DNA of 11,026 bases from a virus. Lineage: Duplodnaviria; Heunggongvirae; Uroviricota; Caudoviricetes. The stretch lies in IMG/VR virus record IMGVR_UViG_2690316285_000015; one strand, written 5' to 3'. Under the pieces are notes generated by a model that saw only the letters and a list, made by a program, of their open reading frames with translations, was not told the DNA's origin and did no database searches. Positions within the stretch are counted from its first letter, which is position 1; each line of letters begins with the position of its first letter. The translations under genes and the position numbers were made by a program. Of this stretch, positions 4,307 through 10,998 are shown piece after piece.

Positions 4307-5050
4307 ATGAACAGAAAACAATTCATCCAGTCGCATGGTGCTACTTGTAGTAACTGGACTTGGAGTTGGTCATTTGTGAACCACGACAAGAAAATGGTTA
4401 TCTTTGGTGCATGGGATGTACAAAAAGAGCAAGAAAGATCAGTCATTCTGAGGGAGCGGTGGAAAACCAAAGTTGTGGAGGGAAAGGAAAGAAAAAATCT
4501 TGGATATATTCAAGCTATTGAACACATTCAATTGATAGCTGAAGGTTATGAGCTTTACACGTTTGATATGGAGCAGGGACGAAACGATGAGAATAGAGAT
4601 GTAGCTGTTATCAAACGGTTCACTCCAAAACTTGAAAAACGTTACCTTCGGAAAGAAGGAACAGTTTGGTATGCAGACTTTTTACCTAATCCATTTCCAG
4701 ATGAAATTACCTCACCTGAAAACTACGCTGAGGGTGCAAAAAAGCAAGTTACAGTAAACTCCTACGAGCGTGATCCAAAAGCACGACAGGCTTGTATTGA
4801 CCATCATGGTACTTCCTGCGGGTGTTGTGAGTTTAACTTTGAGAAAGTCTATGGTGAACACGCCAAGGGCTTTATACACGTTCATCATATCAAACCGCTA
4901 CACACAGTAGGCGAGGATTACGAGGTAAATCCAATTACTGATATGGTTCCACTTTGTCCAAACTGTCACGCAATGGTACATCGCGGTAACGAAGTATTAA
5001 GTGTCGAAAGTTTAAAAGCACTGTTGTTTAAAGACAGCAATAAAATTTGA
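4307..5050 (+). CDS. HNH nuclease with McrA-like C-terminal HNH domain and an N-terminal domain of unknown type (possible modification-dependent restriction-like enzyme)
   Basis: C-terminus CGCCEFNFEKVYGEHAKGFIHVHHIKPLHTVGEDYEVNPITDMVPLCPNCHAMVHRG has the C-x2-C ... HH ... N ... C-P-N-C-H arrangement of McrA-type HNH domains; AGAGAGGGA SD-like element just upstream of ATG; ends at TGA. Confidence 0.7.
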   Translation: MNRKQFIQSHGATCSNWTWSWSFVNHDKKMVIFGAWDVQKEQERSVILRERWKTKVVEGKERKNLGYIQAIEHIQLIAEGYELYTFDMEQGRNDENRDVAVIKRFTPKLEKRYLRKEGTVWYADFLPNPFPDEITSPENYAEGAKKQVTVNSYERDPKARQACIDHHGTSCGCCEFNFEKVYGEHAKGFIHVHHIKPLHTVGEDYEVNPITDMVPLCPNCHAMVHRGNEVLSVESLKALLFKDSNKI

Positions 5051-6531: not shown

Positions 6532-6604
6532 CGAAAGTAGTTCCTGAACGCATTAAAGGGGCAAATACTTTACCATCCGAAACACAATCAAGTACACTAC
6601 CCGT

Positions 6605-6660
6605 TCACGTACTGCTCACATGTTGGGTTTGTTATTTTGTTGGGGTGAGCAGTACGTGTA
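6605..6660. repeat. 15-bp perfect inverted repeat with 26-nt spacer between two minus-strand genes
   Basis: TCACGTACTGCTCAC (6605-6619) and GTGAGCAGTACGTGA (6646-6660); spacer has GTTGGG repeats; begins 4 nt after the stop of the upstream minus-strand gene; no U-tract on either strand. Confidence 0.6.
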
Positions 6661-6663
6661 TCC

Positions 6664-6975
6664 TCAGAAGGGTAGTTCCCCCTGATCACAGAACCAATCA
6701 CCTTCTTCACTGCTTTGATTCATCCGGTACTCAGCAGATAGATATGCTAACCCATCAATAACACTTATTAGTGGTGTTTCACAGGTAAGTACAAAACAAT
6801 CTCTCTCTATAGTACCTAACCAGTATTCCCTGTACTGATTCTGGAAGAATACCCTATCCCCATAATGAAATTCTGTTAGTGCAGATCCCCAATAACACAC
6901 GGTTGCCCAGCGACCGTTATGTGAGAACTTCTGAACCCCTCGCGTAATGGATGGATCATAGCCGTCTTTGCTCAT
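6664..6975 (-). CDS. Hypothetical soluble protein (103 aa)
   Basis: Strong SD: reverse complement of 6976-6995 reads AGAGGAGGGTAACAA immediately before the ATG; ends at TGA; no recognisable domain. Confidence 0.5.
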   Translation of the reverse strand: MSKDGYDPSITRGVQKFSHNGRWATVCYWGSALTEFHYGDRVFFQNQYREYWLGTIERDCFVLTCETPLISVIDGLAYLSAEYRMNQSSEEGDWFCDQGELPF

Positions 6976-7082
6976 TTGTTACCCTCCTCTATGTATTACT
7001 GTATATATGTACAGTATTGCAGTCAGTTTCCCAAAAATCCAGCACCCCTTTGTTTACCACTTTGAATGATTAATTCTATTGT

Positions 7083-7135
7083 AATGATCAATAAAATTGA
7101 TCGATTTAATTGCCAATGTTTTAAAAATGATCAAT
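7083..7135. promoter_or_regulatory. Operator-like repeats AATGATCAAT with three GATC sites, in the divergent intergenic region
   Basis: AATGATCAAT at 7083-7092 and 7126-7135; palindrome GATCAAT-AAA-ATTGATC at 7086-7102; GATC at 7086, 7099 and 7129. Confidence 0.4.
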
Positions 7136-7167
7136 TATCAATAACTTAAAGCGTAACGAGCAAAGTT

Positions 7168-7719
7168 ATGAACATTGATAATTGGGCAATACCGATAACA
7201 AGTTTGGGTGGTCAGTTGCTGGGGGTTGAGTTGGTCAGCCATGTAGAACGCGAGGGAATCAGGCAGATCGGCCTATGGGAAGAAGAAGTACTTCATGGGC
7301 AACTAATGCTTATTGAAAGCAAGGCGGCATGGTTCAGGGATAACGGTTTGTATTGTGTGATTACTACTGGCCGTGGTGAACCATACGAGTACTTACCATT
7401 CCTTCGGCAGATGACAAGGGATATGAAAGTACATAACCAGCAGTGGCTTGATGATCTCGGTGTACATGGTGGTTCTGCTATTCCTCTGGTTACAGGTGAT
7501 TTCGAGGTTGCCCGATTAAATAGAAGGTACACAGAAGAGAACATTGACCGTCTGATCTTTCCAGTACTCATAAAAAGCATTCGCCAGTACTGCGAGAAGG
7601 TGATCGTACCCGTCAGAGATAAAACGTATTACCCAATTCTCAGAGAGGCCGGTGTATGGGCGGTACAGGGAGAGTTCAGGCCAATGCGTTTTGAGCAATG
7701 TGAAAAATTAATAGGATAA
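7168..7719 (+). CDS. Degenerate EAL-like domain protein (YdiV/RflP-like; catalytic motifs not conserved)
   Basis: AIPITSLGGQLLGVELVSHV parallels the start of EAL domains (QPIV...G.EAL.R) with ELV in place of EAL; WLDDLGVHGGSA parallels the DDFGTG(Y)S motif in degenerate form; C-terminal AVQGEF parallels the (V/L)QG(Y/F) motif. At 183 aa it is shorter than catalytic EAL domains. Confidence 0.55.
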   Translation: MNIDNWAIPITSLGGQLLGVELVSHVEREGIRQIGLWEEEVLHGQLMLIESKAAWFRDNGLYCVITTGRGEPYEYLPFLRQMTRDMKVHNQQWLDDLGVHGGSAIPLVTGDFEVARLNRRYTEENIDRLIFPVLIKSIRQYCEKVIVPVRDKTYYPILREAGVWAVQGEFRPMRFEQCEKLIG

Positions 7720-7724
7720 CAATA

Positions 7725-8087
7725 ATGAAAAAATTACTAATTGGGTTACTGATTGCCCTTAGTACTGGATGTACTACTACGCACAGCTTCATGGATAAAG
7801 CTTACGTTGGCTATGTAGATGACAAGGCCGTAGTACTGTTTGATGCAGGAACACGTAATGGGGTGAAGTACTACCGTCCTCAGTTCCAGAGTGATTGCGG
7901 TCGCATCTATAACAAGATCTATCATGATGACAATACAAGTACTGGATGCCTCATACGAGATTCCCGCATTGCTGAACTACATCCCTATAGAGAGCATGTA
8001 AGTAAGGTAGTACCACATCAGACCGATAGTGTTCACGATTGGTTAGAAGGGGTCAATTCACCATCCCATATCCTCGACAATCTATAG
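7725..8087 (+). CDS. Putative lipoprotein (120 aa)
   Basis: Signal peptide MKKLLIGLLIALSTGC with Cys16 followed by TTTHS (lipobox-like, not canonical); starts 5 nt after the EAL-like gene stop with AGGAT upstream; stop TAG. Confidence 0.6.
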   Translation: MKKLLIGLLIALSTGCTTTHSFMDKAYVGYVDDKAVVLFDAGTRNGVKYYRPQFQSDCGRIYNKIYHDDNTSTGCLIRDSRIAELHPYREHVSKVVPHQTDSVHDWLEGVNSPSHILDNL

Positions 8088-8094
8088 GGTACGT

Positions 8095-8364
8095 ATGGGA
8101 AAGGTAATGGTGATTTTGTTAGTACTGGCTGGGGTACTCTTCAACATTGCAGGTGAGGATGCACCCCAGCCACAGTACACGGACAATGAGAACCAGAACG
8201 CTATGGATTTCGCACAGTCACTAATCAAGGGTAAGTACCCATGCGATATGGTGACTATGGATAGTACTGAGAATGGTACAGGACGTATTGATGTACGGTG
8301 TGATGGTAAGTACCAGTATGAGATCATCCGGCATGATGGACAATGGCAGGTAGTATCGAAGTAA
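8095..8364 (+). CDS. Small secreted or periplasmic protein (89 aa) with N-terminal signal peptide
   Basis: MGKVMVILLVLAGVLFNIAG followed by a polar mature region with two Cys; starts 7 nt after the upstream stop. Confidence 0.55.
   Translation: MGKVMVILLVLAGVLFNIAGEDAPQPQYTDNENQNAMDFAQSLIKGKYPCDMVTMDSTENGTGRIDVRCDGKYQYEIIRHDGQWQVVSK

Positions 8365-9669: not shown

Positions 9670-10998
<1,329 letters not shown>

Follow-up and report, generated by a model that had tools for sequence, protein, structure and literature searches.

The window examined here, an 11,026-nt stretch of the IMG/VR virus record IMGVR_UViG_2690316285_000015 (Caudoviricetes), is part of a temperate phage or prophage, and we analysed in it a GATC-rich repeated element at positions 7083–7135. 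The element lies in a 192-nt intergenic region (30% GC) between an open reading frame (ORF) on the minus strand (6664–6975) and one on the plus strand (7168–7719, encoding an EAL-like protein of the STM1697 family), a divergent arrangement that the ORF list bears out. The original prediction had described three GATC sites within 47 bp, a repeated element AATGATCAAT and a GATC-capped palindrome, all of which are indeed there: GATC occurs at 7086–7089, 7099–7102 and 7129–7132, exact copies of AATGATCAAT at 7083–7092 and 7126–7135, and a perfect 7-3-7 palindrome, with arms GATCAAT (7086–7092) and ATTGATC (7096–7102), at 7086–7102. The features of the regulatory stretch are the following.

7056–7070: distal 15-bp dyad ACCACTTTGAATGAT (AYCA-N7-TGRT), the counterpart of the ACCACTAAAAGTGGT palindrome in other clades
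7065–7074, plus strand: degenerate repeat copy AATGATTAAT, with GATC replaced by GATT
7083–7092, plus strand: repeat copy 1, AATGATCAAT, including the first GATC
7086–7102: 17-bp palindrome GATCAAT-AAA-ATTGATC, with the core dyad ATCA-N7-TGAT at 7087–7101 and a GATC capping each end, 13 bp apart
7095–7106: GATC-centred element AATTGATCGATT, family consensus AAT-Y-GATC-R-ATT at −70
7110–7115, plus strand: predicted −35 hexamer TTGCCA, its TTG kept in the family
7123–7148, plus strand: nearly invariant block AAAAATGATCAATTATCAATAACTTA, a probable high-affinity site for integration host factor (IHF)
7126–7135, plus strand: repeat copy 2, AATGATCAAT, within the IHF-like block and immediately 5′ of the −10 hexamer
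7133–7138, plus strand: predicted −10 hexamer AATTAT, 17 nt after TTGCCA (consensus scan)
7174–7184, minus strand: inverted copy ATTGATAATTG, in codons 3–6 of ORF 7168–7719, complementary to 7132–7142

Besides the two exact copies, AATGATCAAT has three more with one mismatch each, at 7065–7074 (AATGATTAAT), at 7133–7142 (AATTATCAAT) and on the minus strand at 7174–7183, the last being an inverted AATTATCAAT within the beginning of ORF 7168–7719. With at most one mismatch there are 6 matches in the 11-kb window, and 5 of the 6 are inside 120 bp. Other clades of the family carry ATTGATCATTG in place of the inverted copy in the alignment, and this copy may reflect a coding constraint only. When surrogates were matched in composition to the 192-nt intergenic region, P was ~0.0005 for three GATCs in 47 bp, ~0.07 for the 10-nt direct repeat and ~0.04 for palindromes with 7-nt arms. 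Taken from one sequence alone, these statistics are modest and no stronger than suggestive, since 16% of whole-window surrogates hold a cluster of three GATCs in 47 bp somewhere and GATC is not enriched across the window (35 observed vs 33.7 expected), and so not depleted either.

It was the comparative data that made the GATC-rich repeat observation solid. Genomes, viral contigs and metagenomes yielded 23 related regulatory regions, all of them prophage loci of Enterobacteriaceae, with Shigella sonnei, E. coli, Enterobacter (including Enterobacter chinensis), Lelliottia and Scandinavium as sources. The alignment comprises the first 21 distinct regions, while L029, L030 and L034 joined for the comparison of the block only, and GATC was counted in 20 distinct homologous regions of 95 nt each, from −110 to −16 relative to the start codon, a stretch with 22% GC. 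GATC occurs 47 times across these 20 regions, compared with 22 times or fewer for any other of the 24 permutations of its letters. Sequences of the main clade have 2–4 GATCs each against ~0.2 expected, an enrichment of ~15-fold in the region, and new GATCs are found at non-homologous positions among clades (−91, −82 and −56, the last within the −35 hexamer).

The identity of the downstream protein across the related loci falls from 89% down to 46%, with the layout retained throughout. The shared order is a LexA box, a variable stretch, a 15-bp dyad at ~−100, the GATC-centred element at −70, TTGnnn and the nearly invariant block AAAAATGATCAATTATCAATnAnTTA, which ends ~20 nt 5′ of the start codon and shows stronger conservation than the coding sequence. 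Each locus has exactly one copy of the 14-mer GATCAATTATCAAT, at a constant position. The 17-mer AATGATCAATTATCAAT was also tried as a general phage regulatory word, and this was rejected, as its occurrences outside the family in IMG/VR were chance matches, mostly in apparent coding contexts.

A sigma-70 promoter was recognised by consensus scan, in which TTGCCA-17-AATTAT scores 9/12, with the predicted transcription start at ~7144–7147. By count on the alignment, the main clade keeps both the TTG and the 17-nt spacing, with TTGATC, TTGATA, TTGACT, TTGAGT and TTGCGA as −35 hexamers; where TTGATC serves as the −35 hexamer, in some clades, it supplies the additional GATC at −56.

The block at 7123–7148 consists of an A-tract (7123–7127), 8 nt that include the third GATC (7129–7132), TATCAA (7136–7141), four variable positions and TTA (7146–7148). 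IHF recognises the consensus WATCAAnnnnTTR, with higher affinity where A/T elements flank it (PMC10380432). In the window, TATCAATAACTTA at 7136–7148 is the only match to the IHF core WATCAANNNNTTR, and the AAAAA at 7123–7127 ends 8 nt before this core, which is the register of the high-affinity H′ site of lambda attP. The extended pattern A5-N8-WATCAR-N4-TTR is matched at 14/14 positions in the window, and none of 1000 shuffles equalled it. WATCAR-N4-TTR is present in 23/23 family sequences, at −32 to −42 relative to the ATG, and the A-tract stands 8 nt 5′ of the core in nearly all of them. The N4 segment has 10 variants while its flanks, TATCA(A/G) and TTA, are invariant, and we assign the block to IHF because variation is confined to the unspecified N4, as a protein site predicts. 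The block thus probably binds IHF with high affinity, as a site of the lambda H′ type that covers the promoter spacer, the −10 hexamer and the predicted start, and the promoter-proximal repeat copy is best explained as a piece of this site overlapping the −10.

Read from the lambda genome, the H′ site is AAAAAAGCATTGCT-TATCAA-TTTG-TTG, compared with TAAAAATGATCAAT-TATCAA-TAAC-TTA in the window, in identical register. H′ is architectural and acts in a recombination complex, whereas the site in the window overlaps the −10 and start of a promoter and has an invariant spacer with a Dam site in it. That GATC, the third, occupies promoter positions −16 to −13 (−39 from the ATG) and is retained in 22/23 sequences. 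Since neither the IHF consensus nor the −10 hexamer needs a GATC, yet it is kept, its conservation is the strongest single argument that GATC itself matters. For other DNA-binding proteins, the best matches in the window (Fur 11/19, FNR 8/10, CRP 6/10, Fis 5/6 and Lrp 11/15) were each equalled by 19–98% of shuffles, and consensus matches to a DnaA box, a P1 C1 operator or a second LexA box were likewise not above chance in shuffles.

Upstream of the promoter, the core of the palindrome, ATCAATAAAATTGAT at 7087–7101, is a 15-bp ATC-N9-GAT box. Boxes of this form (T-N11-A), paired at a distance of 2–3 helical turns beside the −35, are typical of LysR-type regulators, and the window has 15-bp interrupted dyads in such an arrangement. 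The two dyads are 31 bp apart and directly 5′ of the −35; the distal one, ACCA-N7-TGAT, matches AYCAnTnnnAnTGRT perfectly and is C-N11-A rather than T-N11-A, and those of other clades (ACCA...TGGT) are C-N11-G. In L017 two such dyads stand at 22-bp spacing. With at most one mismatch, AYCAnTnnnAnTGRT is found 24 times in the upstream regions (0.6 expected), with varying interiors, and ATCA-N7-TGAT exactly 8 times (0.07 expected). The proximal dyad is retained in 6/6 sequences of the window's clade, again with a variable interior, and most other clades have ACCACTAAAAGTGGT or a one-mismatch variant near −100. In L001, L002, L004–L008 and L022 the palindrome at ~−100 from the ATG reads ACCACTAAAA(G/A)TGGT where the window has ACCACTTTGAATGAT. 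A distant clade (L014, L016 and L034) has TGACAC-N3-CCTGTCA at that position, which suggests a different upstream operator.

The first two GATCs come from a G and a C that extend the proximal dyad by one base at either end. At these two sites the main constraint seems to lie in the dyad rather than in GATC, because each upstream GATC is lost by a single substitution in some close relative while the dyad stays. On the minus strand, 7095–7104 within the −70 element reads TCGATCAATT, which matches 9/10 positions of the high-affinity H-NS motif TCGATAAATT (P ~0.045; motif string from PMC2094087).

A similar layout was seen at an STM1697-like gene of Salmonella (L036, OR851295.1, 1000–1120), which has TTGATT-17-CATTAT and TATCAGGGAGTTA, with TATCAG-GGAG-TTA at −34, and whose upstream region also contains the elements TCGATCATTTT and ATTGATCG. 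Its IHF-like spacer, in contrast, has no GATC. The downstream protein of the window is homologous to STM1697 (~30% identity), while its gene differs from STM1697 in being prophage-borne, with a serine integrase and a lambda-type terminase, and in standing beside a gene with an SOS box. From the layout common to both, this type of control region may predate the prophage family, and what it shares with the STM1697-like promoter may help explain the induction of STM1697 and its dependence on YeiE.

We read the GATC-rich element as the core of a conserved promoter-operator region that would drive an accessory operon of the prophage, beginning with the EAL-like gene, and that is assembled from familiar parts, namely a sigma-70 promoter, an IHF site, LysR-type dyads and Dam sites, and from the sequence comparisons we give this reading a probability of about 0.55. 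The dyads would be occupied by a dimer or tetramer of some regulator, perhaps a LysR-type factor of the host, H-NS would silence the AT-rich region in the background, and IHF would bend the promoter, competing or cooperating with RNA polymerase. With Dam targets inside the protein sites, methylation and protein binding would probably influence each other. The operator-like control proposed in the original prediction was upheld in that this is a divergent regulatory region, conserved across prophages and enriched in GATC, while its epigenetic side is plausible rather than demonstrated. The element probably governs the plus-strand gene alone, and not both divergent genes as was suggested; the minus-strand gene has its own LexA box at 6997–7016. 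As a whole, the region is an ordinary, well-conserved promoter-operator and not a new kind of element; its parts are familiar, and the Dam site inside an IHF site over the −10 is the arrangement previously uncharacterised.

Several observations weigh against this reading. An IHF site across −10 and +1 is an unusual arrangement, and the invariant TATCAA...TTA could be partly due to promoter, discriminator or start-site constraints. In the distant clade, the best −35-like hexamer, counted on the alignment and sequence, is 3 nt farther from the block. The dyad pattern was derived post hoc from the same sequences, which inflates its enrichment statistics; some clades have ATCA-N8-TGAT instead of N7 (5 occurrences), and L003, L012 and the distant clade have no dyad match within one mismatch. 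Upstream GATCs are also lost singly with the dyad kept, the left one in L009, the right one in L010 and L018, and the left one by a change inside the left arm in L030. A strict need for methylation at the upstream GATCs is weakened, because close relatives lose them one by one.

How far Dam methylation matters is the main point on which the alternatives differ. The related loci come from Enterobacteriaceae, which answers the proposed check for a Dam-encoding host as far as the family goes, the Dam of these hosts being a matter of established knowledge only. Enterobacteriaceae are Dam-positive. The original prediction took clustered GATCs in a promoter for the hallmark of a Dam switch, which asks too much of them: a cluster alone is insufficient, and the consensus scans pointed to no regulator that would block methylation, the match to OxyR being no better than shuffles. 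On the sequence evidence, sensitivity of this promoter to methylation is plausible, at roughly even odds. A phage-encoded Dam was also considered and set aside, as Pfam gave no match for the gene that is annotated as a "methyltransferase" in the E. coli copy, which makes it uninformative. In the papers searched, we found none linking STM1697 with GATC or methylation.

Perhaps the GATCs are a by-product of an AT-rich, H-NS-silenced acquired promoter with IHF and a sequence-specific factor that prefers (G)ATCA/TGAT(C), Dam having no regulatory role; we regard this as possible, though on the unlikely side. It would account for the persistence of the dyad in L009 and L010, which have lost the GATC through a change of the flanking G or C, and it agrees with the H-NS-like −70 element, with the low GC content of the intergenic region and of the −110 to −16 stretch, and with the STM1697-like promoter, which has the IHF-like core and no GATC in the equivalent spacer. 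It fits poorly with the −39 GATC, present in almost every sequence though unneeded by the IHF consensus or the −10, and with the GATCs newly arisen at −91, −82 and −56 in separate clades. It is also established knowledge that, in a Dam-positive host, N6-methyladenine in a protein site rarely leaves binding unaffected.

At the other extreme would be a true Dam-dependent, phase-variable or bistable epigenetic switch of the agn43, gtr, opvAB, mom or std type, at which a LysR-type regulator (OxyR, HdfR, YeiE or another) binds unmethylated GATC-capped dyads and blocks Dam. If true, the anti-flagellar operon would have heritable ON and OFF lineages. GATC is enriched here, its positions turning over among clades while the number is steady at 2–4, and the 7086/7099 pair, 13 bp apart, has the register of the GATC pairs bound by one OxyR dimer in P22 gtr, agn43 and Mu mom. 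The dyads, 22 or 31 bp apart, are spaced much like the half-sites of LysR-type factors and OxyR; by our own count, half-sites of P22 gtr start 32 bp apart, and the adjacent half-site spacing at opvAB has been called canonical for reduced OxyR (PMC4856963). The GATC flanks are AT-rich, and those of 3/4 GATC sites at opvAB are predicted to be poor Dam substrates (PMC4856963). Prophages or horizontally acquired DNA carry the known examples too, some gtr operons tolerate the loss of one GATC (PMC3688519), and LysR-type factors other than OxyR can be methylation-sensitive, e.g., HdfR at std (PMC6735912). Nevertheless, the best match to the full-site OxyR consensus, 13/20 at 7065–7101, is equalled by 13–21% of shuffles (agn43 scores 14/20), and each dyad matches 6/10 positions of the OxyR half-site (ATAGnTnnnAnCTAT), with G4 and C12 replaced and the arms being ATCA/TGAT. 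Several clades have N8 dyads or no dyad, the distant clade has one GATC only, within the IHF-like block, and conservation of the upstream GATCs does not exceed that of the dyads that they cap. A classical switch of this kind is accordingly one that we hold to be unlikely.

The comparison with the described systems gives the same mixed picture. As at agn43 (CP4-44), gtrABC (P22) and mom (Mu), 3–4 GATCs are clustered at the promoter of a prophage accessory gene, in ATYGATCRAT contexts with AT-rich flanks and with one 13-bp GATC pair capping a 15-bp dyad, and in some clades a GATC falls in the −35, as described for gtr. Here, however, the arms are ATCA/TGAT rather than ATAG/CTAT or ATCG/CGAT, only one dyad is GATC-capped, and those systems have nothing that corresponds to the IHF-like site over the −10, with the third GATC inside it. 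At std, by its published description, three GATCs stand in 25 bp with spacings of 13 and 9 bp, and L017 likewise has GATC spacings of 9 and 13 bp; the LysR-type factor HdfR binds the std upstream activating sequence and methylation hinders this binding (PMC6735912), whereas the std sites are more than 200 bp 5′ of the promoter.

An undescribed variant can also be envisaged, in which the GATCs in the LysR-type dyad and in the IHF site over the −10 would together set a heritable ON or OFF state of the STM1697-like factor in a Dam-dependent manner; on present sequence data we consider it quite improbable. If it were true, an IHF/Dam pairing would replace the classical OxyR/Dam pairing at the promoter core, and the prophage would divide the host cells into lineages with and without flagella, which would bear on resistance to flagellotropic phages or on immune evasion.

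Control by an mRNA leader hairpin, in which 7130–7147 would pair with 7164–7179 and hide the start codon, is very doubtful. The RNA fold of 7120–7200 has −16 kcal/mol (z = −3.8), and 7132–7142 and 7174–7184 form an 11-nt perfect inverted repeat. The left arm, however, is at or 5′ of the predicted transcription start, the predicted structures vary among clades, the clade of L002 is without the complementary ORF segment, and there is no Rfam match at the hairpin or anywhere else in the window. A DNA cruciform was rejected as well, the single-stranded DNA fold of 7060–7150 being unremarkable (z = −1.3), and so was an inversion switch, as the inverted repeats at 6966–6976 and 7155–7165 are short and clade-specific and no invertase is nearby.

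A packaging or recognition site read by the phage terminase as at P1 pac, which consists of TGATCA/G hexamers plus an IHF site (bioRxiv 10.1101/2022.09.02.506314), is barely credible: all three GATCs do lie in TGATCA or TGATCG hexamers (7085–7090, 7098–7103 and 7128–7133), with their Dam sites, next to the IHF-like site, but the context is another one, with a terminase of the lambda Nu1/GpA type and not PacA/PacB, an intergenic site separated from the small terminase gene, 3.1 kb 3′ of it, by variable genes, 3 hexamers rather than 4+3 flanking a cleavage region inside pacA, and a position fixed relative to the EAL-like start codon, as for a promoter.

The promoter-operator region, as we read it, stands between the following genes.

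7168–7719, plus strand: EAL-like protein of the STM1697 family, 183 amino acids, first gene of the operon
7725–8087, plus strand: predicted lipoprotein, 120 amino acids, signal ending LSTGC, syntenic in relatives
8095–8364, plus strand: predicted secreted protein, 89 amino acids, probable third gene of the operon
6997–7016: LexA (SOS) box TACTGTATATATGTACAGTA, 21 nt 5′ of the start codon of the minus-strand gene
6664–6975, minus strand: divergent gene, 103 amino acids, phrog_2100 (E 4.8e-9), syntenic with the EAL-like gene in relatives

The three plus-strand genes are separated by 6 and 8 nt, and they therefore probably form one operon. In a comparison of the family profile with PDB, the 183-residue protein matched Salmonella STM1697 (E 1.4e-28). 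Its AlphaFold model (predicted local distance difference test score, pLDDT, 69) has 5hxg_A, the STM1697-FlhD complex, as its best fold match (E 3e-11, 29% identity), followed by YdiV and EAL domains, and a weak NCBIfam match to PdeH was also found. The STM1697 chain in PDB is longer, at 235 residues, and the model of the 183-residue protein has low confidence at residues 68–112. An identical partial protein is present in Shigella sonnei, and homologues occur in Lelliottia, Enterobacter and E. coli. STM1697 prevents FlhD4C2 from recruiting RNA polymerase (PMC5622320), and the EAL-like protein is presumed, by homology, to antagonise FlhD4C2 too. Repression of STM1697 by the LysR-type factor YeiE has been reported, the mechanism being unknown (PMC8262846). 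Searches against Pfam and PADLOC gave no match for the two genes flanking the motif (6664–6975 and 7168–7719). In L030 (9500–10010) and L031 (2300–2812, reverse strand) an internal deletion fuses about the first 30 EAL-like codons to the C-terminal part of the 89-residue ORF, and leaves the entire regulatory region intact.

If the regulatory reading holds, rare temperate phages of Enterobacteriaceae carry a tightly controlled STM1697 homologue, with which the phage could modulate host motility and flagellin exposure. In the region one could also study, on a small scale, how methylation interacts with a nucleoid protein and a specific regulator at one promoter. The family is rare indeed, as an L007-type query, the only one tried, matched 1 of 5426 complete E. 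coli genomes, and megablast of 6600–7800 against phages, E. coli genomes and plasmids gave no match. The sole complete E. coli genome found with the prophage family is AREA_C483 (L029, NZ_CP123310.1, 8200–20600), where the region is split by IS3, IS5, ISSen4 and a group II intron; this prophage is decaying, because its large terminase gene is interrupted.

The LexA box of the divergent gene has zero mismatches to TACTGTATAT-N4-ACAGTA, and CTGT-N8-ACAG is kept in nearly all related loci; judged by this box, the gene is probably SOS-induced. Its 103-residue product was rejected as the regulator of the motif, the model being confident (pLDDT 85) and without a DNA-binding fold or a PDB fold match. 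In Enterobacter ludwigii (L032), the same gene family, with a LexA box, is found beside a small resolvase/invertase gene.

Elsewhere, the window begins with the C-terminal part of a large serine recombinase and further holds HNH endonucleases, several genes that lack annotation and, at 10269–10814 (plus strand), a small terminase gene of the lambda type, as befits a temperate phage or prophage; related loci continue into genes for a GpA-type large terminase and a portal protein. ORF 208–1038 encodes the zinc ribbon and coiled coil end of this recombinase, which runs off the left end of the window, and full-length homologues of 644 amino acids are present in L017 and L030. The gene at 4307–5050 encodes a 247-residue HNH endonuclease with a PADLOC match to Type IV methyl-directed restriction enzymes (mREase_IV, E 4.7e-7), and may be a defence gene in an accessory region. 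A minus-strand ORF at 9670–10290 (206 amino acids) shares 22 nt with the beginning of the small terminase gene, leaving no intergenic space for a cos site directly 5′ of it, and relatives have a gap of ~45–80 nt at this place.

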